Below, one piece after another: positions 514 through 38,660 of a stretch of DNA of 64,000 bases. The notes beneath the pieces are model-generated. The model saw only the letters and a program-made list of their open reading frames with translations. It did no database searches and was not told the DNA's origin. Origin of the DNA: Parcubacteria group bacterium. GTDB taxonomy: Bacteria > Patescibacteriota > Minisyncoccia > Phycocordibacterales > Phycocordibacteraceae. Position 1 is the stretch's first letter. Each line of letters starts with the position of its first letter. Made by a program: the position numbers and the translations under genes. The stretch covers positions 191,720-255,719 of the forward strand of contig JAQBRE010000002.1 of NCBI GenBank assembly GCA_028286605.1. Reading direction: 5' to 3'.

Positions 514-517
514 ATTG

Positions 518-15467: not shown

Positions 15468-15500
15468 AAACAAGACCGCGTTCGCGGTCTTGTTTCTTAG
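15468..15500. terminator. Bidirectional rho-independent terminator
   Basis: A near-perfect hairpin AAACAAGACCGCG/CGCGGTCTTGTTT is followed by TCTT. Confidence 0.55.
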
Positions 15501-15587
15501 CGGAGACGGAGGGATTCGAACCCTCGAAGGGTTTAACCCCTTACATCGTTAGCAGTGATGCGCCTTCGACCACTCGGCCACGTCTCC
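15501..15587 (-). tRNA. tRNA-Ser (anticodon GCU), long variable arm
   Basis: Has acceptor GGAGACG/CGUCUCC, U8, a 3-bp D-stem, anticodon loop CUGCUAA, a long variable arm UAAGGGGUUAAACCCUUCG, T-arm GAGGG-UUCGAAU-CCCUC and discriminator G. Confidence 0.85.
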
Positions 15588-21459: not shown

Positions 21460-21481
21460 CAAAACCTTTTCATATCTATTT

Positions 21482-21871
21482 ATGTCCGCACTCTATCGCA
21501 TCTATCTCGTTGACGACGACCGCTTCCTGCTCGACATGTATGCAGTGAAATTCAAGGCAGCAGGTCATGAAGTGACTGCATTTCAAGGTGGCACGCTTGT
21601 GCTCGACGCATTGCGTTCAGGCGCTGCGGCACCGGACGCACTGCTTCTTGATATCGTTATGCCAGAGATAGATGGCTTCGGCGTACTTGAGGCAATACGC
21701 AAGGAAAATCTTATCCCGACGACGAAGATCATCGTGCTTTCTAATCAGGGTCAGGAGTCCGATATCGAGCACGCTACGAAGCTTGGCGTCGCGGGCTATA
21801 TTATCAAGGCATCTGCGATACCGTCTGAAGTATTCTCTGAGACGATTCGTATTATAGAAAAGAAAGCATGA
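21482..21871 (+). CDS. Single-domain response regulator (CheY-like receiver)
   Basis: Has YLVDDD, a phospho-acceptor Asp within LLLDIVMP, and a conserved K in the C-terminal region. Confidence 0.8.
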   Translation: MSALYRIYLVDDDRFLLDMYAVKFKAAGHEVTAFQGGTLVLDALRSGAAAPDALLLDIVMPEIDGFGVLEAIRKENLIPTTKIIVLSNQGQESDIEHATKLGVAGYIIKASAIPSEVFSETIRIIEKKA

Positions 21872-22935
21872 GCACAGGTACCGCAAAGAAAATAAGTCCG
21901 CTTCTCGACACAGTGATAAGTGAAGGCGGTTCAGACCTGCACCTTTCTGCAGGCGTGCATCCTATCATCCGTGTCTCCGGCTCGCTCGTTCCGTTGCTGC
22001 AGTATCCGGTGCTCACCCAGGAAGACACGATGGAGATGCTCAAGAGCATGGTGCCTACGGAACGGCTCCCTACATTCGAAAGCAATCAGTCCGTGGACTT
22101 TTCGTATTCGCATAACGAACAGTCACGTTTCCGTGTAAACGGCTACGTAGTGCAAGGAAAGGTTGCGATGGCGATGCGTCTCATTCCGCACGAGACCTTC
22201 ACGTTCGCAAACCTGAATCTCCCGCCAATTTTGGAAGTTTTCACGCAGCGCACACAAGGCTTCTTTCTTATTGTTGGACCAGTGGGGCAGGGAAAGTCTA
22301 CGACGATGGCAGCAATCATCGACCGTATCAACGAAACCCGTGCTGAACACATCCTTACGATTGAAGATCCTGTAGAGTATCTCTTCGAGCAGAAGAAGTC
22401 GCTCATCCATCAGCGTGAAGTGCATGTTGATGCGCCGGATTTCGCAAGCGCACTGCAAGCTGCCTTCCGTGAGGACATGAACGTGATCATGGTGGGCGAG
22501 ATGCGCGATCAGGAAACTATCTCTGCTGCGGTTACTGCTGCTGAAACCGGTCACCTTGTTCTTTCGACGCTGCACACCAATAATGCCGCGCAGACCATCG
22601 ACCGTATCATCGACATGTTCCCTTCGACACAGCAGGATCAGGTGCGCGTGCAGCTTGCCGGCTCGCTTGCGGGTATCTTCTCGCAGCGTCTCGTGCCGCG
22701 TATCCAGGGCGGTTTGATTCCTGCGTACGAGCTGCTCATCAACAACAACGCCGTCGCGAATCTTATCCGCGAAGGACGTACGCATGAAATCACGACCGTC
22801 GTGCAGACTAGCTCGCAGGAAGGAATGGTTGATCTTGACCGCTCGCTCGCCGAGCTCGTTCGTCGCGGGGAAGTGACTATAGAACACGCGTATGAACGTT
22901 CACTCGACCCTAAGACCTTCGAACGCTACCTCTAA
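21868..22935 (+). CDS. pilT: Twitching-motility (retraction) ATPase PilT
   Basis: Has Walker A GPVGQGKSTT and MVGEMRD...HLVLSTLHTN. Confidence 0.9.
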   Translation: MSTGTAKKISPLLDTVISEGGSDLHLSAGVHPIIRVSGSLVPLLQYPVLTQEDTMEMLKSMVPTERLPTFESNQSVDFSYSHNEQSRFRVNGYVVQGKVAMAMRLIPHETFTFANLNLPPILEVFTQRTQGFFLIVGPVGQGKSTTMAAIIDRINETRAEHILTIEDPVEYLFEQKKSLIHQREVHVDAPDFASALQAAFREDMNVIMVGEMRDQETISAAVTAAETGHLVLSTLHTNNAAQTIDRIIDMFPSTQQDQVRVQLAGSLAGIFSQRLVPRIQGGLIPAYELLINNNAVANLIREGRTHEITTVVQTSSQEGMVDLDRSLAELVRRGEVTIEHAYERSLDPKTFERYL

Positions 22936-22938
22936 TCT

Positions 22939-24147
22939 ATGCTTTTTGCTTACCGCGCCCTTGATGCAGACGGACATGAACGCTCAGGAAGCGTGGAGGC
23001 TCTTTCGCAGGATGTCGCCGTTGCGACGCTTCAGCGCCGCAACCTGATCGTCTCGTCCATTGAGCCGCTCGTTGCCAATAAAGGACTTACGGCGAATCTC
23101 GACCTTTTCAAGCATGTTTCTAACAAAGAGATCGTTATCCTTTCACGTCAGATAGCAACGCTCTTCGAGGCACAGGTTTCTGCGCTTCGCATTTTCCGCC
23201 TGCTCGCTTCAGAAGTCGATAACAAGTATCTCGGAGAAATCATGGGACAGGTCGCGGACGACCTGCAGGGCGGAAGTCCTATTTCAAAGGCGCTTGCGCG
23301 CCACCCGAAGGTCTTCACTCCTTTTTATGTAAACATGGTGCGTTCCGGCGAAGAGTCTGGAAAGCTCTCAGAGACCTTCGGCTATCTGGCTGACTATCTC
23401 GACCGCACCTATGAAGTAATGAGCAAGGCGCAGAATGCGCTCATCTATCCGGCGTTCGTTATCGGCGTGTTCTTCGTCGTGATGGCACTGATGATGACGG
23501 TCGTGATTCCGAAGATCAGTGTGATCCTTCTGGATTCCGGAGAAGCGATACCGATGTACACACAGGTGGTGATTTGGATATCGCAATTCCTTGTGAAATT
23601 CGGCTTTCTTATCATCATCGCTATGATCGTAGGAGCATTCGTTGCGTATCGCATGATGCAGACTGAGCAGGGGAAGCTTTTCTTCGACAGCTTCAAGCTT
23701 GATATCCCCTATGTAGGCGATCTCTATTCGAAGCTTTATCTTTCACGCATCGCGGATAACTTCGCAACGATGCTCGTTTCCGGCGTGCCACCGGTCGAAG
23801 CTGTTGAAATAACGGCATCGGTGGTGGGGAGCAAGACATTCGAGGACTTGCTGCGCGAAGCAGCCGAAGAAGTGAAGGGCGGCGTCCCTATTTCAGACGC
23901 ACTTGGCAAGCATCCGGAAATTCCTGGCATCATGGTTGCCATGATCCGTGTGGGTGAAGAGACCGGAGAGCTCGGTAATATCCTCAATACGCTCGGCAAG
24001 TTCTATCGTCGTGAAGTATCGAACTCAGTCGACACGCTGGTCGGTCTTATCGAGCCTCTCATGATCGTCTTTCTCGGACTTGGTGTCGGTACGTTGCTCG
24101 CATCGGTTATGATTCCGATCTACAACCTCGCTGGCGCGATCAACTAG
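22939..24147 (+). CDS. pilC: Type IV pilus platform protein PilC (GspF family)
   Basis: Contains two T2SSF repeats and three TM helices. Confidence 0.9.
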   Translation: MLFAYRALDADGHERSGSVEALSQDVAVATLQRRNLIVSSIEPLVANKGLTANLDLFKHVSNKEIVILSRQIATLFEAQVSALRIFRLLASEVDNKYLGEIMGQVADDLQGGSPISKALARHPKVFTPFYVNMVRSGEESGKLSETFGYLADYLDRTYEVMSKAQNALIYPAFVIGVFFVVMALMMTVVIPKISVILLDSGEAIPMYTQVVIWISQFLVKFGFLIIIAMIVGAFVAYRMMQTEQGKLFFDSFKLDIPYVGDLYSKLYLSRIADNFATMLVSGVPPVEAVEITASVVGSKTFEDLLREAAEEVKGGVPISDALGKHPEIPGIMVAMIRVGEETGELGNILNTLGKFYRREVSNSVDTLVGLIEPLMIVFLGLGVGTLLASVMIPIYNLAGAIN

Positions 24148-24259
24148 CCCGCACGTTTTATATTCTTATCCACAGAGTAAACCGTTCGTGCGTAATCTTC
24201 ACGTACAATACATGTAGCGGAACATTACTCGTAACCCGCATTACCTTACTTAAAAAAAT

Positions 24260-24760
24260 ATGACATCTGTATCTTCTGCGGCGCGACGTGGTTTCACTCT
24301 CATCGAGCTCCTCGTCGTTATCGCTATCATCGGCATTCTCTCCTCCGTCGTGCTCGCCTCTTTGAATACGGCACGTAACAAGGGAGCGGACGCGGCAGTC
24401 AAGTCGAACCTTGAGCAGGCTCGTACTCAGGGCGAACTCTTCTACGACGCGAACAGCAACAATTACCTCCAAGGTGCGGCAGGATCAGGCAATACTGCTG
24501 ATGCGTGTTCTCCTGCAGGTTCCATTGGAACTTTGACTGGTGTATACAAGTCGGTTCTTGCAGCAGCTCAGGCGGTCGGCATTAGCACCGTGAGCGAAAA
24601 TACGCTTGGTGCTGCTGGTGTTGCAAACTGCAATATCATCACAACAGCATGGGCAGCTTCAGTGCCGCTTAAGTCAACGACTGGTTACTTCTGTGTAGAC
24701 AGCACTGGTGTCGCAACCACAACAGCAACGGCACTCGCTGCCGGACTACAGCACTGTTAA
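24260..24760 (+). CDS. pilA: Type IV major pilin (prepilin), paralog 1
   Basis: Leader MTSVSSAARRG then a cleavage site before FTLIELLVVIAIIGILSSVVLASL. Four Cys in the C-terminal region would give two disulfides. Confidence 0.85.
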   Translation: MTSVSSAARRGFTLIELLVVIAIIGILSSVVLASLNTARNKGADAAVKSNLEQARTQGELFYDANSNNYLQGAAGSGNTADACSPAGSIGTLTGVYKSVLAAAQAVGISTVSENTLGAAGVANCNIITTAWAASVPLKSTTGYFCVDSTGVATTTATALAAGLQHC

Positions 24761-24782
24761 TCCAGCGTTCTTGTGTGCAACA

Positions 24783-24805
24783 AAAGGCCCCTTCGGGGCC
24801 TTTTG
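24783..24805 (+). terminator. Strong rho-independent terminator after pilin paralog 1
   Basis: Perfect hairpin AAAAGGCCCCTTCGGGGCCTTTTGTATTT. Confidence 0.8.
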
Positions 24806-24872
24806 TATTTCTATCTTGGACTTGTCCTTGGACGAAAATATTTAAACCGAAATGTCCCGTATACTGAATGGA

Positions 24873-25358
24873 ATGAGCTTTCCCCGGCGCGGCTTCACGC
24901 TCATAGAGCTCCTCGTTGTTGTTGCTATCATTGGTGTTCTTTCTTCTGTCGTTCTTGCGTCGCTCACTACGGCGCGTAACAAGGGAGTGGACGCGGCAGT
25001 CAAGTCAAACCTCGAACAGGCTCGCACACAGGGCGAACTCTTCTATAGCGCGAATAACAATTCGTATGACGGCGGCACCGCACCAACCAGCGTTTGTAAC
25101 CCGCTCGCTTCAGCTGGCGGCCTTATTGGCGCCAACAGATCAATTCTTGCCGCAGCGCAGGCAATCGGTCAGAATACCGTTACTCTTCTTGGTACAGGCG
25201 CCACGTCGGTATGCAATAGCAATGCCGGCGCATGGGTGGCACAGGTGCCGCTCAAGTCTGTGGCTGGTTTTTTCTGTATCGATAGTACTGGTGTAGCAAC
25301 AACTACACTCCTTGCTTCTCCGGGCCTTGTTAGCGGGGCTGGCGATTTCGCTTGCTAA
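24873..25358 (+). CDS. Type IV major pilin paralog 2 (ORF opens at 24852; likely start MSFPRRG)
   Basis: Reads RRGFTLIELLVVVAIIGVLSSVVLASLTTARNKGVDAAVKSNLEQARTQGELFY, nearly identical to paralog 1 over the N-terminal ~55 aa. Confidence 0.8.
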   Translation: MSFPRRGFTLIELLVVVAIIGVLSSVVLASLTTARNKGVDAAVKSNLEQARTQGELFYSANNNSYDGGTAPTSVCNPLASAGGLIGANRSILAAAQAIGQNTVTLLGTGATSVCNSNAGAWVAQVPLKSVAGFFCIDSTGVATTTLLASPGLVSGAGDFAC

Positions 25359-25406
25359 TCCACACTGCGTACGATAGTGAAGGAAGTATCACGTATAATA
25401 AAAACA

Positions 25407-25931
25407 ATGCGTTCTCCTCGCCTCGGCTTCACTCTCATCGAGCTCCTCGTCGTTATCGCTATCATCGGCATTCTCTCGAGCATCGTGCTTTCATCGCTTA
25501 ATACAGCGCGCAATAAAGGTAATGATGCAGCGATTAAATCGAATCTTGATCAGGCGCGCACGGGAGCGGAATTATTTTATGATTCAAATAACAATCACTA
25601 TGTGACGGCGGCTGGAGCAGCGACGGATGTGTGCTCTTCAACTGGCACGGCAGGTGGAATAAACAGCATATACAAATCAGTACTTGCTGCTGCACAGGCA
25701 GCTGGTTTGAGTAGCGTGGACACGACCCTTCTAGTCTTATCACCAATTGGTAACGCCGTATGTCACTCATGCTATCCAGGTGAAGCGGGTTCGGATTGCG
25801 GAACAGCCGATCGTTGGGCTGCTCAGGTACCACTAAAGTCCGCCCCCGGAGTTGTGTGGTGCGAGGATTCATCTGGATCGGTAGGTACCAGTACTAATAC
25901 GCTCGCGAGCGGCGATACGCATTGCAACTAA
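25407..25931 (+). CDS. Type IV major pilin paralog 3 (ORF opens at 25377; likely start MRSPRLG)
   Basis: Reads RLGFTLIELLVVIAIIGILSSIVLSSLNTARNKGNDAAIKSNLDQARTGAELFY. Confidence 0.8.
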   Translation: MRSPRLGFTLIELLVVIAIIGILSSIVLSSLNTARNKGNDAAIKSNLDQARTGAELFYDSNNNHYVTAAGAATDVCSSTGTAGGINSIYKSVLAAAQAAGLSSVDTTLLVLSPIGNAVCHSCYPGEAGSDCGTADRWAAQVPLKSAPGVVWCEDSSGSVGTSTNTLASGDTHCN

Positions 25932-25934
25932 TTC

Positions 25935-26696
25935 GTGATTGAGTCCTGGTTCATTCTGGCTGCTTTCTTTATACTCGGCGCATTGTGCGCGAGCTTTACC
26001 GGCGTGGTTGCAGAGCGATTGCATACAGGGCAGTCATGGGTGAGCGGACGCTCGCGCTGTAATTCCTGCAGTGCATATCTGGATGGGCGCGATTTAATTC
26101 CGATACTTTCCTGGTTGCTGTGGACGGGGAAGTGTCGACAATGTCGCGCCCGGGTACCGGGCGCATACGCGCTTTCGGAGCTTTCGCTCGCTATTGCGTT
26201 TGCTGCGGCATATCATCTGTTCGGCTTTTCTTTGGTTCTCCCGTTCTTCCTTGTGGCACTTATCGTCCTTCTTTTCATAGTCCTGTACGACTTACGTCAT
26301 ATGATCGTGCCGACCGGAAGCTCGACGTTGCTACTGGTGCTTTCGGTGATCGTTGCGGTGCTCAGAGCGCCTGCCCTGCAGGCGCTCGGCCTCGTATTCC
26401 TGGTCGCCGGCGCCATCGCGATCTTCTTCTTCCTACTGCATGTATGCTCGCGCGGCCGTGCCATGGGATTGGGTGATGCGCCCGTAGCTCTCGCCCTATC
26501 GCTGCTGGTAGGCACGCAGGCGATCGCTGGACTCATGTTTTCATTCTGGGTGGGGGCGTTGTACGGCATCGTCGTATTGAGTACACGGCGCGGAGGGCCT
26601 AGAATGGGTATTGAGGTACCGTTCGTGCCATTCTTGGCTATCGGCTTTCTCCTCGCCCTTTTTACTGCATGGAACCCATTCGCACTCGTCCTCTGA
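25935..26696 (+). CDS. pilD: Prepilin peptidase PilD (A24 family)
   Basis: Has an N-terminal Cys tetrad (CNSC...CRQC), polytopic membrane topology, and catalytic Asp contexts LYDLRH and GLGDAPV. Confidence 0.85.
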   Translation: MIESWFILAAFFILGALCASFTGVVAERLHTGQSWVSGRSRCNSCSAYLDGRDLIPILSWLLWTGKCRQCRARVPGAYALSELSLAIAFAAAYHLFGFSLVLPFFLVALIVLLFIVLYDLRHMIVPTGSSTLLLVLSVIVAVLRAPALQALGLVFLVAGAIAIFFFLLHVCSRGRAMGLGDAPVALALSLLVGTQAIAGLMFSFWVGALYGIVVLSTRRGGPRMGIEVPFVPFLAIGFLLALFTAWNPFALVL

Positions 26697-27349
26697 TAGC
26701 GCGCAGGCTAGACGCTTCGCGCGGCTTCACATTGATCGAGATGCTCGTTACGCTTTCGATACTCGCTATCATTACTGCAGTGGCTGTTACTGGGCAATCC
26801 ACCTTCAATCATTCGATCCTGCTGAATGATACGAGCTATACGATCGCGCTCTCTGCACGCGAAGCGCAATCGCTCGGCCTCTCGAGCCGTAAATTCGCAA
26901 ACGTACAGAACGGCGGGTATGGCGTTGATTTCAAGAGCGCTACGCCTTCAAAATATACTGTCTTCGCTGACATTCAGAGCATCGCCTCAGAACCGGCGTG
27001 GTGTCCGGCCATAGCCACCAGTACTCCGGAAAACAAATCTGGAAACTGCTTATATGACGGGGCGGGGGAGACATTCCAAACGTATGATCTTACGCGCGGG
27101 TATACGATAAGTAATTTCTGCGGAAAGGCGGGAGCAACGCTTACGTGTTCGAGCGGGGGTGGTCTGCAATCTTTGGATGTGCTGTATCTGCGTCCCAATA
27201 CTACAGCAATCATCACAGGCATCACCACGGGGGGTACGGTCCAATTTACTTGCGCACAGATATATGTGAAATCGCCAACAGATACCGCGACGCAGACGGT
27301 GCGAATGTCCTCGCTGGGTGAAGTATCGGTCGGCCAAACTTGTCCATGA
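26669..27349 (+). CDS. Minor pilin / pseudopilin 1
   Basis: Class III signal: SRGFTLIEMLVTLSILAIITAVAV. Confidence 0.65.
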   Translation: MEPIRTRPLIARRLDASRGFTLIEMLVTLSILAIITAVAVTGQSTFNHSILLNDTSYTIALSAREAQSLGLSSRKFANVQNGGYGVDFKSATPSKYTVFADIQSIASEPAWCPAIATSTPENKSGNCLYDGAGETFQTYDLTRGYTISNFCGKAGATLTCSSGGGLQSLDVLYLRPNTTAIITGITTGGTVQFTCAQIYVKSPTDTATQTVRMSSLGEVSVGQTCP

Positions 27350-27912
27350 GTATGCGCACTTCACGCCCCGGCTTCACTCTTATTGAAATGATCGTGTCGG
27401 TCGGCCTTTTTGCGATCGTGATGCTGGTCTCGACAGGCGCATATCTCTCGCTCATAAGTCTGGACCGTAAGGCACGTGCGACGAATGACCTCGTGACGAA
27501 TCTTTCATTCGTCATCGACACGATGGAGCGTAGTATGCGCTCGGGATCTAATTTCCAATCCGGTGGAATCGGAGGCACGAACTCACCGCCTACCGGCGAC
27601 ACTAGCCTTGCCTTCGTTAATGATCAGGGTCAGACGGTTACCTATATTTTTGATGCGACGAATCATTCAATTGGGGAGTGCGTTGGTGCTGTAACCTGTA
27701 CATCATCGAATGATCAGACCCTTACGGACCCGCGTGTCATTATTACGAGCATGAAATTCTATGTACGCGGTGTCGGTACCGCTACACCGAATGATATCGT
27801 CCAGCCATGGGCCACCTTCGTGACAACCGGCTCGATTACGCCAGATTCAACGTCGCAACCGATTACGTTCACGATACAAAGTACTGCCTCTGCACGCGCC
27901 CCTGAACTATGA
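27340..27912 (+). CDS. Minor pilin / pseudopilin 2
   Basis: Class III signal: RPGFTLIEMIVSVGLFAIVML. Confidence 0.7.
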   Translation: MSMSMRTSRPGFTLIEMIVSVGLFAIVMLVSTGAYLSLISLDRKARATNDLVTNLSFVIDTMERSMRSGSNFQSGGIGGTNSPPTGDTSLAFVNDQGQTVTYIFDATNHSIGECVGAVTCTSSNDQTLTDPRVIITSMKFYVRGVGTATPNDIVQPWATFVTTGSITPDSTSQPITFTIQSTASARAPEL

Positions 27913-28439
27913 TAAAACTACGCACAAAGAAGGGATTTACGCTTGTTGAAACGCTGGTAGCGATTTCGATACTCATGGTTAGTATCGTGGGCCCCATGTA
28001 TAGCGTATTTCAGGCTGTACAGACAACGTACATCGCGCGCGACCAGCTTATTGCAACGGCATTGGCACAGGAGGGGATAGAATACGTGCGTCATCATCGC
28101 GATAATAATTCCCTCTACAACCTCAAGAACCCTGGAAGCCCCGTATCATGGATGAATGGGCTCAGTGCATGTACCGGACAGAATTGTATGGTAGATGTTA
28201 TTGCTTCTGATAGCGTTCCGCCGGTTACATGTAGTGGTACGTGTTCGCCCCTCGACAATGCTACTGTTGCTCCCTTTTATTATAACTATATAAGTGGTAC
28301 GCCAAGCCGCTTTACTCGCACGGTCAGAATCAACACGGTAAGCGCAAATGAAGTAGTCGTAACCTCGACGGTGAGCTGGATTAATTCGAAGATTCCATTT
28401 TCTGTTACCGTTACGGAACACTTGTATAATTGGCTATGA
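27909..28439 (+). CDS. Minor pilin / pseudopilin 3
   Basis: Class III signal: KKGFTLVETLVAISILMVSIVGP. Confidence 0.7.
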   Translation: MIKLRTKKGFTLVETLVAISILMVSIVGPMYSVFQAVQTTYIARDQLIATALAQEGIEYVRHHRDNNSLYNLKNPGSPVSWMNGLSACTGQNCMVDVIASDSVPPVTCSGTCSPLDNATVAPFYYNYISGTPSRFTRTVRINTVSANEVVVTSTVSWINSKIPFSVTVTEHLYNWL

Positions 28440-29743
28440 TTTATACCCCCTCATCACCGCGCGGCTTCACGCTCCTTATCGCCGTCATACTTTCAACCGT
28501 CGTCCTTACGGTGGGTCTTTCGCTGCTCGATGTCGCATACAAGCAGACCATTCTTTCTTCCACAGCGAAACAATCGCAGGCGGCGTTTTATAATGCGGAT
28601 TCCGCGCTTGAATGCGCGTTGTATTACGATCAGAAACTCGATGCCTTCGATTTCGCGACGCCTTTAGCTGCTTCATCGCTTACCTGCAGCAGTACGCCCG
28701 TAACGAATTATTCTACGGTTGTAAACCCTGCAATGACAATGCGTACGACCATCTTCACAACCCCGTGCCCAGGGAGCGGCATTTCTGCAACGACGACCAT
28801 ATATAAATATGCAGGCGGTGCAACGAGCTTGTATGCAGACGGCTTTAATACATGTACTGCGACTGATCCACGTCGTGTCGAGCGCGGTTTGAAGGCTACC
28901 TATGGTGACCCTTCGGCTCCGGTTATTCCTTCAGGCCCTTCGCTTACGTATTTGATAGTTGCAGGCGGCGGCGGCGGCGCTGCCTGGGCAGGTGGCGGTG
29001 GCGGTGGCGGTGGCGTTATAACCGGAAGCGCAGCAGCGACATCAGGAAGCTATTCGATAGTGGTTGGCAGTGGAGGCGCTTCGGGCTTTACTGGTAGCCC
29101 CACACCTTCTGATTATCAAGGAAAGAATGGAACTAATTCTTCGTTCAATGGAATGAGCGCGATAGGCGGTGGCGGTGGCGGCGCGTCTACGCCGGTTGCA
29201 GCGCCTGGCAGTGCCGGAGGTTCGGGCGGTGGCGCTGGATACCCTAGTTCAGGAACAAATGCCGGAGGCGCAGGTACGGCAGGTCAGGGAAATAGCGGTG
29301 CTTCTGAAGCATCTGTACCGGGAACTTGGGCAGGCGGCGGCGGCGGTGCGAGCGCTGCAGGTACTTCAGGAAGTGCCGCAGCAGCGGGTGCAGGTGGCGC
29401 AGGACTGAGCAGTGCTATAAGCGGTTCGTCAGTTGTGTACGGTTCAGGCGGCGGTGGTGGCGACTGGACCGCGACGGCATTTGGTCCGGGCGGATCTGGC
29501 GCAGGAAGCGGTGGCGGCATAGGAAATCCAGCTCTCGCCAATAGAGGCGGTGGCGGTGGCGGTGGCGGTTTCTTCCCCGGCCCCGGCGGAGAACCAGGAG
29601 GCGTGGGTGGATCTGGTGTCGTAATAATTAGTATTCCTACGTCTTCGGCTGCGGGTATTACTACGACGGGCGCCACGCTCACCACTTCTGGCGGCAACAA
29701 TATATATACATTCACCGGAAACGGCACGTTCGTTGTACCGTAA
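28430..29743 (+). CDS. Large minor pilin (PilX-like N-terminus) with a ~250-aa glycine-rich low-complexity C-terminal region
   Basis: Has PRGFTLLIAVILSTVVLTV at the N-terminus, a globular middle, and long Gly/Ala/Ser runs such as GGGGGAAWAGGGGGGGGV. Confidence 0.65.
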   Translation: MAMIYTPSSPRGFTLLIAVILSTVVLTVGLSLLDVAYKQTILSSTAKQSQAAFYNADSALECALYYDQKLDAFDFATPLAASSLTCSSTPVTNYSTVVNPAMTMRTTIFTTPCPGSGISATTTIYKYAGGATSLYADGFNTCTATDPRRVERGLKATYGDPSAPVIPSGPSLTYLIVAGGGGGAAWAGGGGGGGGVITGSAAATSGSYSIVVGSGGASGFTGSPTPSDYQGKNGTNSSFNGMSAIGGGGGGASTPVAAPGSAGGSGGGAGYPSSGTNAGGAGTAGQGNSGASEASVPGTWAGGGGGASAAGTSGSAAAAGAGGAGLSSAISGSSVVYGSGGGGGDWTATAFGPGGSGAGSGGGIGNPALANRGGGGGGGGFFPGPGGEPGGVGGSGVVIISIPTSSAAGITTTGATLTTSGGNNIYTFTGNGTFVVP

Positions 29744-29753
29744 TTTCCTGTAG

Positions 29754-31778
<2,025 letters not shown>

Positions 31779-31790
31779 TAGAGTACCCGC

Positions 31791-32093
31791 ATGACCGCGC
31801 ACGCAACGCCCGACGATGTTAAGAAACTGGCCGCCCTCGCGCGCCTTTCCGTTTCTGAAAAAGACCTGCCGAAGCTAGCTGCGGAATTCGACAGTATCCT
31901 TGCGTATATCGGTCAGCTCGATGAGCTCGCTCTTCCGAAAGCGGAGGGGCCACGCGTAACGGATGTCGTGAATTCATTCCGTGCCGATGGTGCGCCGCAC
32001 GAGAAAGGCGAGTTCACCAAAAAGATCGTCGATGCATTCCCGCAGAAGGAAGGGAACGCCCTTTCAGTGAAGCAGATCATCGTCAACGATTAA
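31791..32093 (+). CDS. gatC: Asp/Glu-tRNA amidotransferase subunit C
   Basis: A 100-aa GatC-like protein: DVKKLAALARLSVSEKDLPKLAAEFDSILAYIGQLDEL. Sits immediately upstream of gatA. Confidence 0.85.
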   Translation: MTAHATPDDVKKLAALARLSVSEKDLPKLAAEFDSILAYIGQLDELALPKAEGPRVTDVVNSFRADGAPHEKGEFTKKIVDAFPQKEGNALSVKQIIVND

Positions 32094-32094
32094 T

Positions 32095-33531
32095 ATGACC
32101 AATCTTAAAAATAGTCTCGCAGAACTCACGATAACTGAAGCCGCACGCATGCTCCGCACGAAGGAGTGTACCGTGCGTGAACTTTGGGATGCGTGTGCCG
32201 CAGCGGCGAGTGCACAGAACGAAAAGCTTAATGCATACCTCGAGCTATTCGTTGCAGACGATGCTGCTATCGACGCTGCACAGGCACGTATCGGTAGCGG
32301 CGATGCGCCGCTTCTTTGCGGCATTCCGCTCGCAATCAAAGACAATATTTTAATAGAAGGACATATCGCGAGCGCAGCGAGCAAGATGCTTGAGAACTAC
32401 AAGGCCACGTATGATGCGACGGTTATCACGAAGCTGCGCGCCGCAGGCGCGCTCTTCCTCGGCCGTACGAATATGGACGAGTTTGCCATGGGAAGCTCCA
32501 CTGAACATTCCGCATTCGGTCGCGTAAAGAATCCGTATGATCATGCGCGCGTGCCCGGCGGTTCTTCCGGCGGTTCGGCTGCGGCAGTCGCCGCTCACAT
32601 GGCCATCGCGTCGCTCGGCACTGATACGGGCGGTTCCATTCGTCAGCCTGCTGCACACACCGGCCTTGTCGGACTCAAGCCAACTTATGGTGCAGTCTCG
32701 CGCTCTGGGGCTATAGCGCTCGGTTCTTCCCTGGATCAGATCGGTCCGTTCGGAAAGAGCGTCGCTGACACCAAAGCACTCTTCGATACTATTAAAGGTG
32801 CGGATACGCTCGACGCTACCACCACGCCGCCAGACACCTATATCGTTCGTGATGCGAAGAAGTCGCTTCGTATTGGAATTCCGATGCGTCTCCTCGAAGA
32901 GGGAATCGATGCGGATGTACGCGCTGCCTTTGACGCGACCATAGAGAAACTCAAGAGCGAAGGCCATACGGTGGTGGATATTTCACTTCCAACCAGCAAG
33001 TATGCGCTCCCGGTGTACTACGTGATCATGCCGGCTGAAGCGTCGACGAATCTTTCCCGTTATGACGGTATCCGTTATGGTCTCGCTGAACGCAGCGCAA
33101 CGTTGCTTGATGACTACATCGATTCCCGTACGAAGGGATTCGGTGCAGAGACGCAGCGCCGCATTCTGCTCGGCACCTTCGTGCTTTCTTCGGGATACAT
33201 CGATGCCTATTACCGAAAAGCAGACGCCGCACGCGGCGTCCTTACGGCAGAATATGATACGGCGTTCGAATCCTGCGATGTCATCGCATTTCCAACGACG
33301 CCCTCGCCGGCCTTCAAGGCCGGCGAGAAGTCCGATCCTGTCTCCATGTATCTTGAAGATGTCTTCACCGTAACGGCGAATCTCACCGGCATGCCTGCAC
33401 TTTCCGTCCCTATGGGTACGGTCGTACGCGAAGAGTCCACCCTTCCGATAGGCATCCATTTCACCGCTCCGAAAGGCAATGAAGAGATACTGTTTAAAAT
33501 CGGTGCGTCTGTGACCGGCGAGCAGCTATAA
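32095..33531 (+). CDS. gatA: Asp/Glu-tRNA amidotransferase subunit A (amidase family)
   Basis: Has the amidase signature GGSSGGSAAAVAA with Ser-cisSer-Lys triad context. Confidence 0.95.
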   Translation: MTNLKNSLAELTITEAARMLRTKECTVRELWDACAAAASAQNEKLNAYLELFVADDAAIDAAQARIGSGDAPLLCGIPLAIKDNILIEGHIASAASKMLENYKATYDATVITKLRAAGALFLGRTNMDEFAMGSSTEHSAFGRVKNPYDHARVPGGSSGGSAAAVAAHMAIASLGTDTGGSIRQPAAHTGLVGLKPTYGAVSRSGAIALGSSLDQIGPFGKSVADTKALFDTIKGADTLDATTTPPDTYIVRDAKKSLRIGIPMRLLEEGIDADVRAAFDATIEKLKSEGHTVVDISLPTSKYALPVYYVIMPAEASTNLSRYDGIRYGLAERSATLLDDYIDSRTKGFGAETQRRILLGTFVLSSGYIDAYYRKADAARGVLTAEYDTAFESCDVIAFPTTPSPAFKAGEKSDPVSMYLEDVFTVTANLTGMPALSVPMGTVVREESTLPIGIHFTAPKGNEEILFKIGASVTGEQL

Positions 33532-33538
33532 TAAGCTG

Positions 33539-34162
33539 ATGGGAACCACTACGGTTACAACGACCGGTCCGGCCGTACATTTCATTAATGTCGAGTATTT
33601 TTTCCGACTCCTGTACGACCTCATCTTCGGCCTGCACATTGGTTCGGTGAACGTCGGCATCGGCAACACATCTGGTCTCGTTACGCTTGCCGGACAGATC
33701 TGGCTTTTCATAAGCGTCATCGCGTGGATCGTCGCGCTCGGTGCATGCTGGGCGCTCGTCTATTACACGACACGGTACTGGCAGTTGCTTGAACAGGAGA
33801 ATGAACGATACACGACTATCTCTGAACCGGAGGCACATGTACAGGTGGAACATTCACGCTGGGCGTACATAAAACAGCTTATCGAGAGTCCGCAGGAAAG
33901 CGATTGGCGCCAGGCGATCATCGAAGCAGATATCATGCTGGACGAAGTGCTTACGCGTTCGGGATATCAGGGCAATACGATTGGCGATAAGCTGAAGACC
34001 GCGAATCCAGATCGCTTCACGACCATTCGCAATGCATGGGACGCGCATACTGTGCGCAATGAAATTGCGCACTCGGGCTCTGCATATCAGCTCACGAACC
34101 ACGCTGCATTCCGCACGATTCAGAATTACGAAGCGGTGTTCCGCCAGTTCAACGAGATTTGA
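33539..34162 (+). CDS. Membrane-anchored protein with a C-terminal HEPN-like domain (tentative)
   Basis: Has two N-terminal TM helices. The C-terminal ~100 aa are helical and contain RNEIAH, which is Rx4H, the HEPN catalytic motif pattern. Confidence 0.5.
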   Translation: MGTTTVTTTGPAVHFINVEYFFRLLYDLIFGLHIGSVNVGIGNTSGLVTLAGQIWLFISVIAWIVALGACWALVYYTTRYWQLLEQENERYTTISEPEAHVQVEHSRWAYIKQLIESPQESDWRQAIIEADIMLDEVLTRSGYQGNTIGDKLKTANPDRFTTIRNAWDAHTVRNEIAHSGSAYQLTNHAAFRTIQNYEAVFRQFNEI

Positions 34163-34827
34163 TTCGGTATTTCAGCAATACTTGCGAGTATTCTTCTTCG
34201 AAGCGAGGTGCTGTTTCGTACTTTTATGCGAATCGTGCCGATATAGGTTTTTGAATCACGATCTACGTTTCCATACCCGCTTATATATGTTGGTTTTGAA
34301 AATTGTTCTCTGGGAATATTTGTCTCTTTAGACCAGAAAGAAGTAATTCTCTCGGTTTCGTCATTGTATAAATTATTAATTGTTATTCGAGCATGAATAT
34401 CTTTTAGTGGAATTTGATAACACATATCGAGCCATTGAATTGCGGTATTTATAATCTTTGGGTCTGAATTCGTAAATCCAAACTCCTGACTTCCTCTTTT
34501 GTATCCTTCACCCCAATACAAACCAATTCCAAGCATAAAAAGATCACGGATTTGTAACATGTCTATATCTTCTTTCCCTTGCTTTGTCTGAGCCAAGATG
34601 TCATGAATTTTTCGAGTCTTGTTTTTCTCAATCCACGGAGCAAGTGCTGCTAGTGACGCAGTGCGATGTCGTTCAGACAAGTACTCCTTCTGCTTAGTCG
34701 TTAGAGAAACGTTTTTACACCATCTACTTACAGTGCTGCTGCTTACTCTTAGGTTGTCGGCAATTTCCTTAATACTCATTCCGCTCGCGCGGAGTTCCAA
34801 AGCCCTCCCATGAAGTTCATTTTTCAT
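34126..34827 (-). CDS. HTH-LAGLIDADG homing endonuclease (single-motif) with N-terminal helix-turn-helix
   Basis: Has the HTH MSIKEIADNLRVSSSTVSRW and the LAGLIDADG-type motif LFMLGIGLYWGEGYK. Divergent from the intron-containing tRNA(CAU). Confidence 0.65.
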   Translation of the reverse strand: MKNELHGRALELRASGMSIKEIADNLRVSSSTVSRWCKNVSLTTKQKEYLSERHRTASLAALAPWIEKNKTRKIHDILAQTKQGKEDIDMLQIRDLFMLGIGLYWGEGYKRGSQEFGFTNSDPKIINTAIQWLDMCYQIPLKDIHARITINNLYNDETERITSFWSKETNIPREQFSKPTYISGYGNVDRDSKTYIGTIRIKVRNSTSLRRRILASIAEIPNQISLNWRNTAS

Positions 34828-34884
34828 ACTTTAATGCTAAGCATATATCGGTAAATATTCTCTATATTTTGAGTGAATATAGCA

Positions 34885-34913
34885 TTGCGTTCTTCATATT
34901 TTCCCTATATAAT
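34885..34913 (+). promoter_or_regulatory. Putative sigma70-like promoter for the tRNA(CAU) precursor
   Basis: TTGCGT, a 17-nt spacer, then TATAAT within TATATAAT, ending 8 nt before the tRNA 5' end. Confidence 0.4.
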
Positions 34914-34921
34914 CGCCGGAT

Positions 34922-35210
34922 AGCGGGGTAGAGGAGAGGTACCTCGGGAGGATTGAATTATAAGGGCGTCCGCAGGAGCAATCATGTGGAAGATCAACTG
35001 CCAAATTCGGTGAAACCCTCACGTCCGAAAGGACGAAAGGCAATGCCGAGCCAAGCCTGTCGAAAGACAGGAAGGTGTAGAGACTAGACGGTAGACACCC
35101 CTCGTGGGTGAAGGCATAGTCCAGACCACAAATTCGTCTTCGGACGAAGCAACGAAAGTTGTAGCGGCAAGCATAACCTCCAGACGCCGGTTCGATTCCG
35201 GCCCCCGCAA
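34922..35210 (+). tRNA. tRNA(CAU) (Met/Ile2-type) interrupted by a group I intron; exons 34922-34953 and 35172-35210
   Basis: Exon 1 reads AGCGGGG-U8-A-GAGG-AGAGGUA-CCUC-G-GGAGG-AU. Exon 2 reads CAUAA-CCUCC-AGAC-GCCGG-UUCGAUU-CCGGC-CCCCGC-A. The spliced anticodon loop is AUCAUAA, with U8, A14, G18G19 and the T-loop conserved. Confidence 0.8.
34954..35171 (+). ncRNA. Group I self-splicing intron (IC3-like) in the tRNA anticodon loop, about 218 nt, no internal ORF
   Basis: The 5' splice site follows U33 and the 3' splice site follows a G. Core segments CCAAAUUCGGUGAAACC, GGCAAUGCCGAGCCAAGC and GAAGGUGUAGAGACUAGACGG match the Azoarcus tRNA-Ile(CAU) intron P4-P7 core as recalled from memory. Confidence 0.8.
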
Positions 35211-35287
35211 CACGATTGTGACATCAGGAACCAATACCGGCCCCTGTCAAAGTTGGTATTGTACCGGTTCGGGTGTTCAACAGAAAA

Positions 35288-35318
35288 AGTCTGCAAATAT
35301 CATGCAGGCTTTTTCTGT
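35288..35318 (+). terminator. Rho-independent terminator downstream of tRNA(CAU)
   Basis: Hairpin AGTCTGCA-aatatca-TGCAGGCT followed by TTTTTCTGTG. Confidence 0.6.
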
Positions 35319-35392
35319 GTGTATGCTGGGTGGCGCCCATCTACAGCTCAGGATAGTATGTATCTATTCAAATTACTTAAGAACAATATCGT

Positions 35393-35986
35393 ATGAAGAC
35401 ATCTAACACTCTTTGGATTGCAGTAGCATTAGTAGTCATTATCGTAGGAGGGTACTGGTACTGGAGCACGACTCAGTCTTCAAGCACATCACCCGCGGCA
35501 GTTTCCACCGGTACGCAAACGGCTCCGATAGCGTCAACAGTAAATGTAGGTTCGAACGCGCAGCTCCCTAGCTACCTAACTGCAGCAAACGGAATGGCAC
35601 TGTATACCTATAATGCTGATACGTCAGGGGTAAGCAACTGCACTGGTTCATGTGCTGGATTCTGGCCTCCGTATACAGTTTCGAGCACAGCCAATATCTC
35701 TGCGGGATCAGACATCTCAGGAACCATCGGAACGATAAAGCGTGCAGATGGAAGCATGCAGGTTACCTATAACGGCATGCCTCTCTATTTCTTCGTTCAG
35801 GACAAGAATTCTGGACAGGTAACAGGGAACGGAGTACAAAACTTCTCAATCGCTACGCCAACCACGGTGTCGGCACAAAAAGCGGCTGCTGCACCAAAGA
35901 CCGTGGCACCCGCTGCGCCTGTAGTAGCTCCGGTTAAAACAACGCCTGCGCCTACGACACCTGCCCCGTACAACTACAATTATTAA
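35393..35986 (+). CDS. Secreted protein of the 'secreted repeat of unknown function' family (COG4315-like)
   Basis: Has a signal/TM and a twice-repeated motif GMALYTYNAD...CTGSCAGFWPP / GMPLYFFVQD. The tail is Pro/Ala/Thr-rich. Confidence 0.7.
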   Translation: MKTSNTLWIAVALVVIIVGGYWYWSTTQSSSTSPAAVSTGTQTAPIASTVNVGSNAQLPSYLTAANGMALYTYNADTSGVSNCTGSCAGFWPPYTVSSTANISAGSDISGTIGTIKRADGSMQVTYNGMPLYFFVQDKNSGQVTGNGVQNFSIATPTTVSAQKAAAAPKTVAPAAPVVAPVKTTPAPTTPAPYNYNY

Positions 35987-36026
35987 TCGCATCTGAGCTG
36001 GGAACTCCGGTTTCTATACTCAAAAG

Positions 36027-36060
36027 AAAAAGCTCGCACGGTACGCGCGAGCTTTTTCTT
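36027..36060. terminator. Bidirectional rho-independent terminator
   Basis: An A-run, the hairpin GCTCGCAC-ggtac-GCGCGAGC, then TTTTTCTTTC. Sits between convergent genes. Confidence 0.6.
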
Positions 36061-36072
36061 TCATCGTACTTC

Positions 36073-36624
36073 TTACTTCGCGATACCTTTCACGTAGGCA
36101 AGCATCGTCTCTGCATCTGATACTTCGAATGGGTCTTCAGGATAATCGTCGGAAAGTCCTGGTTCAATGAAGAGCTTCTGTATGACGCCGTCTTTGACGA
36201 GCATCGAGTAGCGCCAGCTACGGTTACCGAATCCGAGATTCTCTTTCTTTACGAGCATTCCCATCTTCTCAGTGAATTCGCCGTTTCCATCGGGAAGCAC
36301 TTGTACGTGCTTCAGTCCGAGCTTGTCTGCCCATTGCTTCATCACGAATGCGTCGTTGACCGAAAGGCAGTAGATCGCATCTATGCCCGCTGCTTTGAAC
36401 TCGTCATACTTCGCTTCGTAGCCGGGGGCATGGGTTGTAGAGCAGGTAGGAGTAAATGCACCCGGAAGGCCGAATACGACTACATTCTTTCCGTCAAAAA
36501 TCTCTGCAGATGAAACATCTTGCCAGCGATAGGGGTTTTCACCGCCGACAGATTCATCGCGCACACGGGTCTTGAATATAGCCTCAGGGATATGTTCTTT
36601 TTCTTTTAGTGGTTGAGGGCTCAT
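36073..36624 (-). CDS. Peroxiredoxin, Prx5 subfamily, copy 1
   Basis: Has VVFGLPGAFTPTCS (peroxidatic Cys context) and an AhpC/TSA fold. Confidence 0.9.
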   Translation of the reverse strand: MSPQPLKEKEHIPEAIFKTRVRDESVGGENPYRWQDVSSAEIFDGKNVVVFGLPGAFTPTCSTTHAPGYEAKYDEFKAAGIDAIYCLSVNDAFVMKQWADKLGLKHVQVLPDGNGEFTEKMGMLVKKENLGFGNRSWRYSMLVKDGVIQKLFIEPGLSDDYPEDPFEVSDAETMLAYVKGIAK

Positions 36625-36686
36625 CGTGGTTTTGTTACTAGAAAATTAATCTTAAATATAGCACGAATCAGTGGTAGTATGAATGA

Positions 36687-37097
36687 ATGAAACGGTTTCG
36701 GCACATAGTAGCCTTTTCGTTAGGCCTATTCCTGCTTGTCGGGGTCTCTGTCTGCGCAAGCATGATGCTTATGTCGCAGCCGCACGCAAGCCTGAATGCG
36801 CCTGTGTCGTATCACCAGCTTTGCGCACCCCTCGGAAATTTTCCCTGTTTGCCTCTGGGTCATCTTGTGGTCTGGCAGGTGATATTTAGCGGCATTCCAA
36901 GGCTGATTACGTTCCTGGCGCTTCTCATCTCCATAGGCATCTCGTGCGCTTTTTCAATTTTCTTTACGCGGAGACGTGTGATGCGAGATGTGCGAGCACA
37001 CACCGCGCAAGCTGCTCGTTCCAGACTCCTACCGAGTACGCCCCTGCAGGAAGCTTTTTCGAACGGCATCCTTCACTCGAAGCGGTTTTCATACTAG
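36687..37097 (+). CDS. Hypothetical membrane protein (uncertain ORF)
   Basis: Has hydrophobic segments and no recognisable motif. It may not be a real gene. Confidence 0.3.
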   Translation: MKRFRHIVAFSLGLFLLVGVSVCASMMLMSQPHASLNAPVSYHQLCAPLGNFPCLPLGHLVVWQVIFSGIPRLITFLALLISIGISCAFSIFFTRRRVMRDVRAHTAQAARSRLLPSTPLQEAFSNGILHSKRFSY

Positions 37098-37156
37098 ATC
37101 ATCGGTCTAACTGATGTGGTAGCGCCGCTGCGCTTATTCCATCGGTATTATTCACT

Positions 37157-37885
37157 ATGACTATTCGTATGAAATTAGAATTCAAATTAAACACACTCAT
37201 CTTACCCGTTGCAGTGCTTGTCGCAGCTATCCTCATCTCAGGTTCTCTGTTGTGGAGCAGTAATCGCGCATCGGCGGCGGCGATTGCGGCGAACACGCCG
37301 CCTGGAGCGCAAGCGCCATCGATACCAGTCGATTCAAACAAGGTAGTCACGGACAATGAACCGTATGTCGGAGACCAAAACGCCCCTATTACTATCGCGT
37401 ACTGGTTCGATTACCAGTGCCCATTCTGCCACCAGGACGAAGAGACCGTGATACCGACACTCATTCAACAGTATGTAGATACTGGGAAAGTGAAAATCGT
37501 ATTCAAGGATTTCCAGTTTCTTGGCGCTGATTCGACGACACTCGGAGAAGTAGCACGTGCTGTATGGGAAGTATCGCCTAACCAGTTCTATGCATGGCAC
37601 AAGGCAATGTTCGATGCGCAGGGGACTGAGAACACCGGATGGGCAACTCCAGAGAAGATCAAATCAGTGACGACAAACATTCTGGGAGCTGCTACGGCAG
37701 ATAAGGTGCTCGCGCTCTCCGTAAGCAAGGCGGCTACCTACCAGCAAGAGATGCAGGCAGACCAGACTGAAGCAGAGAACTTCGGCGTAAATGGAACCCC
37801 GTCTATGATTATTGGCAAGCAGATTATTGTCGGTGCACAGCCTATCGCGCAGTTTGAGGCAGCGATTGCGGCAGCAAGCAAATAA
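37157..37885 (+). CDS. DsbA-family thiol:disulfide oxidoreductase 1
   Basis: Has an N-terminal TM anchor and a thioredoxin-fold active site CPFC within YWFDYQCPFCHQ. Confidence 0.85.
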   Translation: MTIRMKLEFKLNTLILPVAVLVAAILISGSLLWSSNRASAAAIAANTPPGAQAPSIPVDSNKVVTDNEPYVGDQNAPITIAYWFDYQCPFCHQDEETVIPTLIQQYVDTGKVKIVFKDFQFLGADSTTLGEVARAVWEVSPNQFYAWHKAMFDAQGTENTGWATPEKIKSVTTNILGAATADKVLALSVSKAATYQQEMQADQTEAENFGVNGTPSMIIGKQIIVGAQPIAQFEAAIAAASK

Positions 37886-37892
37886 GAGAGAT

Positions 37893-38660
37893 ATGGATCA
37901 GAAACGCATGCTGCTCTGGGTGTTCTTTCTCGTCGCCATATCTGGTATCGTGGTCGCTGTCTTAGCTGTCTCAGGAAAGGGGGGTACGCCTGCACCAACG
38001 CAGGCCGTACAACTAACTGCGCCGGTTACTGCGGCGGATCATACCATTGGTTCTAGCAGTGCTCCGGTCACTGTCGTCGAGTACGCTGACTTCCAGTGCC
38101 CTGCATGTCAGGAGTACTCGCCGATTATTACGCAGCTGGTCAAAGACGAAGGACCGAAGGTGTATTTCGCCTATAGGTATTTCCCTTTGACGCAGCACAT
38201 GAACGCGCTTCCTTCTGCCAAAGCAGCAGAAGCAGCAGGGCTACAGGGAAAGTTCTGGGAGATGCATGACCTTCTCTTCGCTAACAATGCGGACTGGGAG
38301 AACCTACAGGACCCAACCCTGGTCTTCGTGGGATATGCGAAAACGCTTGGGCTTGATACGACGCAGTTCGCACAGGATATGAAATCGGCCAAGGTGGCTG
38401 GAGTAGTGAATACTGATCTTGCTTTTGCGGATGCCAACCAGCTTACGTATACTCCGAGCATCTTCGTGAATGGCGTGCTCATCAATAATCCGTCTAGCTA
38501 TGCGGACTTCAAGAAGCTCATCGATGACGCAGCAGGGACTCCCGTTCCGCAGACTGCGTCAGCGCCAAGCTCTGCAGGATCCGCGACGATCGCAGCGACC
38601 TCTACTGCCGCCGCACCCGCTGCATCCGCGCCGGCGGCACCGAAACCGTATGCTTGGTAA
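37893..38660 (+). CDS. DsbA-family thiol:disulfide oxidoreductase 2 (ORF opens at 37812; likely start MDQKRM)
   Basis: Has a TM anchor and active site CPAC within EYADFQCPACQEY. Confidence 0.85.
   Translation: MDQKRMLLWVFFLVAISGIVVAVLAVSGKGGTPAPTQAVQLTAPVTAADHTIGSSSAPVTVVEYADFQCPACQEYSPIITQLVKDEGPKVYFAYRYFPLTQHMNALPSAKAAEAAGLQGKFWEMHDLLFANNADWENLQDPTLVFVGYAKTLGLDTTQFAQDMKSAKVAGVVNTDLAFADANQLTYTPSIFVNGVLINNPSSYADFKKLIDDAAGTPVPQTASAPSSAGSATIAATSTAAAPAASAPAAPKPYAW

Follow-up and report, generated by a model that had tools for sequence, protein, structure and literature searches.

A core-gene protein family of Paceibacteria with a membrane anchor and a probable HEPN endoribonuclease domain

We analysed a 64,000-nucleotide stretch of a Parcubacteria group bacterium genome (assembly GCA_028286605.1, contig JAQBRE010000002.1), hereafter the window, and in particular one of its open reading frames (ORFs), which we call X. 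This ORF was found where an earlier reading made from the sequence alone had put it, at 33539–34162 on the forward strand; it opens with an ATG and encodes 207 amino acids, according to both the ORF list and the sequence. NCBI holds an identical protein, encoded on a 532-kb contig, as 'protein of unknown function with transmembrane region [Parcubacteria group bacterium]'. We consider it probable that X is a membrane-tethered HEPN endoribonuclease, a core gene of Paceibacteria that is catalytically active in the manner proposed below, and we infer both its activity and its dimerisation. Whether its role is housekeeping or regulatory rather than defensive is, in our judgement, evenly poised. Because X is a vertically inherited core gene of a ligA–gatC–gatA–X cluster, a part in RNA processing or decay or in the control of translation, whether routine or regulated, is more likely than one in a toxin–antitoxin system or in phage-defence suicide.

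Three things are new here: an unannotated and very large family specific to the Candidate Phyla Radiation (CPR); its behaviour as a core gene in a ligA–gatCA–X–tRNA-Met cluster, not as a conflict system; and a hairpin architecture whose ectodomain grows and shrinks.

The C-terminal domain has the anatomy of an HEPN ribonuclease

An AlphaFold2 model of X, built from an alignment of 40 sequences, has a mean predicted local distance difference test (pLDDT) score of 82, which exceeds 90 over most of residues 110–207. The C-terminal helices of the model are helix 1 (residues 96–116), helix 2 (120–140), helix 3 (163–182) and helix 4 (187–203), with a further short helix (148–154) within the insert between helices 2 and 3. 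The motif R173-N174-x3-H178 is placed in the C-terminal half of helix 3, and E129 and D131 are placed in helix 2. HEPN ribonucleases have been described as carrying an Rx4-6H motif at the end of helix 3, in which the residue right after the arginine is polar (N, D or H) and aids catalysis, together with a conserved acidic residue in helix 2 and a variable insert between helices 2 and 3 (PMC3710099). As modelled, X shows all three features in the right helices. Given this fold and active-site anatomy, the domain is very probably a genuine member of the HEPN superfamily (Pfam clan KNTase_C, CL0291).

The bare Rx4H motif is not above chance in X and is by itself uninformative: it appeared in 32% of 20,000 composition-preserving shuffles of the protein, with Rx4-6H in 69% and R[NDH]x3H in 4%. 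It gains its meaning from conservation across the family. Among 269 members, R173 is present in every one, and N174 and H178 are each present in 268. Other conserved positions are W123 (267/269) and the residues E129, D131, W167 and H170, for which counts are given in Table 1, and the motif continues as H178-x-G180 (S/Q/E-G after the histidine), with G180 kept in 258/269. In a 40-sequence set, whose identity to X is 30–53%, R173, N174, H178, H170, D131, E129 and W123 are still invariant. Towards the N-terminus, F15, N17, Y20, F21, F22 and Y26 are invariant in 40 close homologues, and R79 is nearly so. The sequence-only reading had proposed an HEPN-like C-terminal domain containing RNEIAH, and had named a non-HEPN predicted fold or an unconserved R···H pair as the outcomes that would count against it; the fold came out HEPN-like and the pair is invariant.

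A second motif, R164-x5-H170 (Rx5H), was considered as the active motif and rejected, because R164 is not conserved. W167 and H170 are as conserved as the catalytic residues, and the generic description of HEPN domains does not account for them. The extended signature around the motif reads W-x-A-H-x-V-R-N-x-I-A-H-x-G.

Searches of profile hidden Markov model (HMM) libraries gave matches below threshold. In Pfam, the family consensus matched DUF4145 over the full profile (E 0.0027; 18.2 bits, cutoff 23.1) and HEPN_Swt1 (E 0.0083; 16.8 bits, cutoff 27.5), and its best single match, to CTD11 of ABC-3C systems (E 2.8e-4, also below cutoff), could not be interpreted. Individual members matched RiboL-PSP-HEPN, HEPN_Swt1 and pEK499_p136, again below threshold. 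NCBIfam returned only Cas13e (E 0.0026, below threshold), and PADLOC, queried with the family consensus, only Cas13a (E 0.0079, below threshold). As far as sequence profiles can indicate, these weak matches from three HMM libraries are nearly all to HEPN families, and the domain is closest to the DUF4145-like and Swt1-like groups while lying outside every existing Pfam family.

X is anchored in the membrane, and some relatives carry an extracytoplasmic module

Residues ~47–76 form a strong transmembrane (TM) segment, with a Kyte–Doolittle 19-residue mean of up to 2.47, and are part of a continuous modelled helix (residues 44–91; pLDDT 88–95) that spans the TM and juxtamembrane parts. Residues ~21–42 are only marginally hydrophobic (19-residue mean 1.2–1.4), although the sequence HFxNxEYFFRLLY there is highly conserved, and the modelled helix at 18–34 has a pLDDT of ~50–66. 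Residues ~14–42 are possibly a first TM helix or an interfacial one. Of the two TM helices claimed from the sequence alone, the one at ~47–76 therefore stands and the other is marginal.

Across the family, two to four lysines or arginines are usual in the 15 residues after the last TM helix, and mostly none is found in the 15 before it. Long forms, with 260–453 amino acids, account for around 20 of the retrieved members. Most of these have a short N-terminus, a strong TM helix, 90–250 amino acids with SH3b-like repeats of the type 'G..IDGP....G..WW.V.F...PDGWV', a second TM helix and the HEPN domain; a few have just one strong TM helix. Long forms have a strong first TM helix at the place equivalent to the marginal N-terminal helix of X. 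Pfam SH3_3 matches two long forms (E 1e-4), and some homologues carry precomputed SH3-type Pfam assignments.

Because of the positive-inside pattern and the SH3b-like loops of the long forms, we place the HEPN domain in the cytoplasm. The sequences argue for a hairpin with the N-terminus in, the loop out and the C-terminus in, an orientation that is predicted from these features. In the window protein the outside loop comprises only about ten residues. The long forms also suggest that the outside loop is a variable and possibly sensory module.

In the long forms P0204, P0240, P0157, P0186, P0265, P0391, P0490 and P0498 (loci L086–L088), one to three SH3b-like repeats lie between two TM helices. 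The ectodomain has been gained and lost within one orthologous family, in which the HEPN domain and the genomic slot are constant.

X occupies one fixed slot behind gatA

We compared genomic context, using tblastn and gene calls, in 88 related loci (83 of them non-redundant) that were fetched by protein identity or from Genome Taxonomy Database (GTDB) genomes; identity to X across these loci is 35–80%. In 83 of 83 non-redundant loci gatA lies directly upstream of X, with gatC before gatA and usually ligA before gatC. The gatA stop and the X start are separated by 7 nt in the window, by a median of 19 nt overall and by no more than 80 nt in 81/83 loci; three long-form orthologues hold the identical slot. 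Downstream, on the same strand, a tRNA-Met(CAU) gene follows in 71 of the 76 loci with enough sequence; where this tRNA is uninterrupted, it starts a median of 72 nt past the end of the X alignment. We take the tRNA to be initiator-like, given its 1x72 mismatch, A11:U24 and the acceptor stem GCGGGG/CCCCGC of E. coli tRNA-fMet.

Because it sits in one fixed slot behind gatA in every locus examined, X appears to be a vertically inherited gene across Paceibacteria. It is probably co-transcribed with gatCA. A scan between gatA and X found no promoter- or terminator-like site, with counts no higher than in shuffled sequence, and thus says nothing firm about operon boundaries. No conserved protein partner follows X either: no ORF family recurs in more than 6 of the 83 loci. 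The sequence-only reading had held that X has no adjacent MNT partner and is not a classical HepT, and had proposed a check for co-occurring partner genes. Both points were borne out, in that X is membrane-tethered, its neighbours are gatA upstream (83/83) and the tRNA or variable genes downstream, and no recurrent partner emerged from the 83 loci.

The placement of X inside a complete gatCAB operon was dropped as an explanation after a scan of ten large ORFs of the 64-kb window failed to turn up gatB. Here ligA–gatC–gatA has no gatB behind it, and X occupies the place that gatB has in many bacteria; the evidence gives no ground for X replacing GatB.

The family is large and specific to the CPR

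A word-indexed search retrieved 831 homologues of X, none with a Pfam domain, and all from sources named Parcubacteria, Paceibacterota, Patescibacteria or something uninformative. In a library of representatives at 50% identity, a profile search returned 2739 clusters with E<=1e-3, of which 699 had E<=1e-30. GTDB species genomes contain at least 578 confirmed matching stretches, and the best 80 of these all come from CPR metagenome-assembled genomes (Paceibacterota, Kaiserbacteria, Nomurabacteria, Adlerbacteria and generically labelled entries). No relatives were found in the phage genomes, plasmids and IMG/VR contigs that we searched. X itself matched nothing above threshold in Pfam, NCBIfam, PADLOC, PHROGs or PDB sequences: the PHROG library gave no match at all, and PADLOC gave none at E<=0.05, its only entry being Hydrolase-TM (E 0.094) over the TM region. 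The family is thus large, CPR-specific and without a Pfam or NCBIfam model. Literature searches on HEPN proteins or RNase Y in Patescibacteria returned nothing relevant.

The variable region downstream is associated with a split tRNA gene

The sequence-only reading had set X beside a mobile-element-like region. Such a region is indeed present, made up of a group I intron in tRNA-Met(CAU) and a free-standing endonuclease-like gene, and it is separate from X. The intron is inserted between tRNA nucleotides 33 and 34 and lacks an ORF. It scores 43.1 bits on RF00028 (E 2.5e-9), below the gathering score of 50; accordingly, Rfam at the gathering threshold found nothing over 31000–38000, and the intron was seen only with an E-value threshold. 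ARAGORN did not call the split tRNA. The joined exons match an intact tRNA-Met(CAT) at the corresponding place in 48 other loci, with up to 98.6% identity over 73 nt. The 33/34 insertion is present in 14 other loci, and a different group I intron lies near nucleotides 35/36 in nine (L002, L007, L009, L015, L016, L026, L029, L041 and L057); these second insertions measure 245–340 nt, and that of L016 scores 67.4 bits on RF00028.

The ORF that is convergent with X encodes a helix-turn-helix (HTH) and LAGLIDADG-like protein and lies outside the intron, on the opposite strand. Its homologues were found only with the 33/34 intron, in 7/14 loci (L010, L017, L021, L023, L035, L044 and L083) compared with 0/57 others (Fisher p 2.6e-6). 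Four of the nine loci with the 35/36 intron have a 122-amino-acid HNH endonuclease-like ORF between X and the tRNA, on the opposite strand (p 1.3e-4), and so does L036, in which the sequence ends before the tRNA. These associations suggest that the HTH–LAGLIDADG-like ORF is a free-standing homing endonuclease cooperating with the intron, and it appears that on two independent occasions an intron lacking an ORF has been paired with a homing endonuclease encoded outside it. A situation of this kind, termed collaborative homing, has been described for phages (PMC3984707); a literature search on group I introns in CPR tRNAs returned nothing relevant. Such pairings would explain the variable region without any involvement of X: the HTH–LAGLIDADG-like ORF is associated with the tRNA intron and is not part of any X system.

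On the downstream side of the tRNA, ~2.4 kb past X, five loci (L017 and four more) have serine-recombinase-like ORFs, as would be expected if the tRNA gene were an integration hotspot. On the other side, a type IV pilus-like cluster that includes several small ORFs lies directly upstream of ligA (window 19699–29743, forward strand), and in L002 and L004, too, ligA comes after pilin-like or Gly_rich_2 genes.

Table 1 Features of the window, with positions counted from its first nucleotide
Feature	Position	Strand	Basis
ORF X, probable membrane-anchored HEPN-domain protein, 207 aa	33539..34162	+	ORF list, 831 homologues, 2739 clusters
X residues ~14-42, conserved N-terminal segment HFxNxEYFFRLLY, marginally hydrophobic helix	33578..33664	+	Conservation, Kyte–Doolittle 19-residue mean, AlphaFold2
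X residues ~47-76, strong TM helix	33677..33766	+	Kyte–Doolittle 19-residue mean, AlphaFold2 helix 44-91, K/R pattern
X residues ~77-95, charged juxtamembrane helix or linker, predicted cytoplasmic side	33767..33823	+	AlphaFold2 helix reaching residue 91
X residues 96-207, HEPN-like four-helix domain	33824..34159	+	
X E129-A130-D131, conserved acidic residues in helix 2	33923..33931	+	E129 261/269, D131 267/269
X W167 and H170 (residues 167-170), just N-terminal of Rx4H	34037-34048	+	W167 265/269, H170 269/269
X R173-N-E-I-A-H178 (residues 173-178), Rx4H motif, R followed by N; C-terminal half of helix 3	34055..34072	+	
ligA, upstream of X	29763-31778	+	tblastn and gene calls
gatC, upstream of X	31791-32093	+	tblastn and gene calls
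gatA, upstream of X, stop 7 nt before X start	32095-33531	+	tblastn and gene calls
HTH and LAGLIDADG-like ORF (233 aa); convergent with X, with a 37-nt overlap at the 3' end of X	34126..34827	-	
tRNA-Met(CAU), split by a 218-nt group I intron	34922..35211	+	Rfam RF00028, exon match
tRNA-Met exon 1	34922-34953	+	
Group I intron	34954-35171	+	
tRNA-Met exon 2	35172-~35211	+	
T2SSE ATPase	19699-21459	+	
T2SSF	22939-24147	+	
Gly_rich_2 protein	28430-29743	+	
tmRNA	517-934	-	ARAGORN
tRNA-Ile(TAT)	3821-3895	+	ARAGORN
tRNA-Ser(GCT)	15500-15587	-	ARAGORN

Proposed mechanism

We picture X as a small inner-membrane protein that consists of a marginal N-terminal helix, a very short outside loop, a strong TM helix, a charged juxtamembrane helix and a cytoplasmic HEPN domain with the R-N-x3-H signature and the acidic residues of helix 2 intact. 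Such a protein would act as a metal-independent endoribonuclease, cutting RNA at the cytoplasmic face of the membrane. The chemistry predicted from the HEPN family would use H178 and R173, with N174 and D131/E129, and would leave 2',3'-cyclic phosphate ends. By analogy with other HEPN ribonucleases, cleavage would require the Rx4H motifs of two protomers to be juxtaposed. This pairing may be controlled by membrane tethering and by the continuous TM–juxtamembrane helix (44–91) and, in the long forms, may also be controlled by the SH3b-like extracytoplasmic loop; such ectodomains suggest that some lineages could follow an Ire1-like logic of sensor, TM helix and ribonuclease. X is the last protein-coding gene of ligA–gatC–gatA–X, usually followed by the initiator-like tRNA-Met(CAU). 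Guessing from these flanking genes (gatCA and the tRNA), the candidate substrates would be tRNA or membrane-proximal mRNA, and synteny alone is no demonstration of either.

Relation to known HEPN systems

Ire1 and RNase L are activated by oligomerisation. Their KEN domains, and C6orf70 (ERMARD), resemble the X long forms in having a sensor on the far side of the membrane, a TM helix and a cytoplasmic HEPN-type ribonuclease (PMC3710099), and they serve as our working analogy for the forms with SH3b-like ectodomains. Unlike Ire1 and RNase L, X lacks a kinase domain, its HEPN fold is not circularly permuted, its sequence relationship to them exists only at the superfamily level, and its short form is almost without an ectodomain.

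HepT toxins are ~130 amino acids long and carry the motif Rx4HxY, the tyrosine of which is the AMPylation site. HepT of the HepT/MntA type VII toxin–antitoxin system is soluble and paired with an AMPylating MNT protein (entry titles 8xdj and 7ae2), whereas X is membrane-anchored, has no MNT neighbour and carries H-x-G instead of H-x-Y.

Three groups of bacterial membrane-associated HEPN proteins were described by Anantharaman et al. in 2013, whose list includes DUF4145 fused to 'TM and SH3 (Firmicutes)' and who proposed that membrane HEPN proteins degrade RNA on the membrane's inner face in response to a stimulus (PMC3710099). A membrane-anchored HEPN protein is therefore an already known kind, of which Csx28 and the HEPN-TM encoded by phage-inducible chromosomal islands (PICIs) are later examples; the sequence-only suggestion of a novel membrane-associated ribonuclease survives as to membrane association and HEPN likeness, and not as to novelty of kind. 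The closest parallels are the DUF4145-like and Swt1-like proteins, which share with X one or more TM segments and a cytoplasmic HEPN domain in which an Rx4-6H motif is conserved; DUF4145 and HEPN_Swt1 are also the best HEPN-clan Pfam matches to the X consensus, and the 'TM and SH3' fusions share the layout of the long forms (TM helix, SH3b-like repeats, TM helix, HEPN). X differs from them in that its matches remain sub-threshold, its TM helix lacks the WP signature, its lineage is Paceibacteria and it is a fixed, class-wide gene of the ligA–gatCA cluster rather than a sporadic or conflict-system gene. HEPN-TM likewise combines HEPN and TM parts in a single protein (PMC12948488). As described, it is set apart by its location on mobile islands and its defence function, whereas X is chromosomal, syntenic and class-wide, with no PADLOC match.

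Alternative readings

Several points weigh against a catalytically active, housekeeping X. Foldseek against the PDB gave nothing significant: the best match is an HEPN protein (1wwp_A; E 0.17, probability 0.95), and the list mixes HEPN proteins with generic four-helix bundles (Psb27 and cytochrome b562). No sequence-level match of the family reached a curated threshold, and a profile search of PDB sequences found no HEPN protein. The housekeeping role is argued from distribution only, and in small genomes with stable gene order synteny is no proof of a functional link with gatCA or the tRNA. Finally, Csx28 illustrates that a TM helix joined to an HEPN-like bundle can be a pore with no nuclease activity.

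The last point underlies the most serious rival, in which the HEPN-like bundle of X would form a membrane pore or scaffold, with R and H serving oligomer interfaces or ligand binding instead of catalysis, and with membrane permeabilisation or protein anchoring as the output. Csx28, a type VI-B2 CRISPR accessory of 177 amino acids, matches X in size and layout, with an N-terminal TM helix, a cytoplasmic four-helix bundle and a divergent, Rx4-6H-like HEPN motif; it is associated with Cas13b (type VI-B) and assembles face-to-back as an octamer to form a pore, where the motif residues contribute to the interfaces and to a salt bridge. The motif of X, by contrast, is canonical, its best structural matches are HepT-type HEPN proteins and no Cas13 was seen with it, and we regard this alternative as unlikely.

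X could instead serve in defence or abortive infection as an effector or toxin (HEPN-TM or Abi type), halting or killing the cell in response to phage attack or stress. Toxins and defence effectors make up most of the prokaryotic HEPN proteins characterised so far (PMC3710099), single-gene defence by HEPN-TM has been reported from PICIs (PMC12948488), and a variable region with homing-endonuclease-like genes lies just downstream of X, joined in five loci by the serine-recombinase-like ORFs. Yet those mobile genes track the tRNA intron and not X, which is found in its one fixed slot behind gatA at 35–80% identity and so appears vertically inherited rather than patchy. Neither an antitoxin or partner gene nor a relative on phages, plasmids or viral contigs was found, and PADLOC and the PHROGs gave no match. 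The abortive-infection or toxin function raised by the sequence-only reading is not supported on these grounds, and we consider a defence role improbable.

That X is not an HEPN protein at all, and is a generic four-helix bundle with a lineage-specific motif (for example, the cytoplasmic domain of a membrane sensor or assembly factor), would fit the ease with which such bundles match one another, as in the mixed and insignificant Foldseek list, and the absence of any match at a curated HMM threshold, but it is very unlikely in view of the HEPN anatomy described above.

Implications for Paceibacteria

To our knowledge, characterised bacterial HEPN proteins are components of conflict systems: toxins, Abi proteins, CRISPR accessories and restriction–modification add-ons. 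X has a canonical catalytic signature and yet behaves as a core gene, and it occurs in hundreds of species belonging to one CPR class, whose genomes are very small. In eukaryotes, HEPN domains have been domesticated in Las1 and Ire1. If X is an active ribonuclease, it would be a bacterial case of such domestication, and would represent membrane-localised RNA cleavage of a kind not seen in model bacteria.

A more far-reaching version, which we hold to be doubtful, is that domestication has turned an HEPN ribonuclease into an essential housekeeping enzyme throughout the class Paceibacteria, one that is co-expressed with GatCA and the presumed initiator tRNA. It might start membrane mRNA decay, in the role of RNase Y or RNase E, or might link signals from the envelope to translation through cleavage of tRNA or mRNA, the SH3b ectodomains of the long forms being the sensors. 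Were this so, bacteria would have in X a counterpart of Ire1 and their first HEPN ribonuclease of the core genome. With this analysis, a large set of hypothetical proteins acquires a concrete name and a hypothesis that can be tested.
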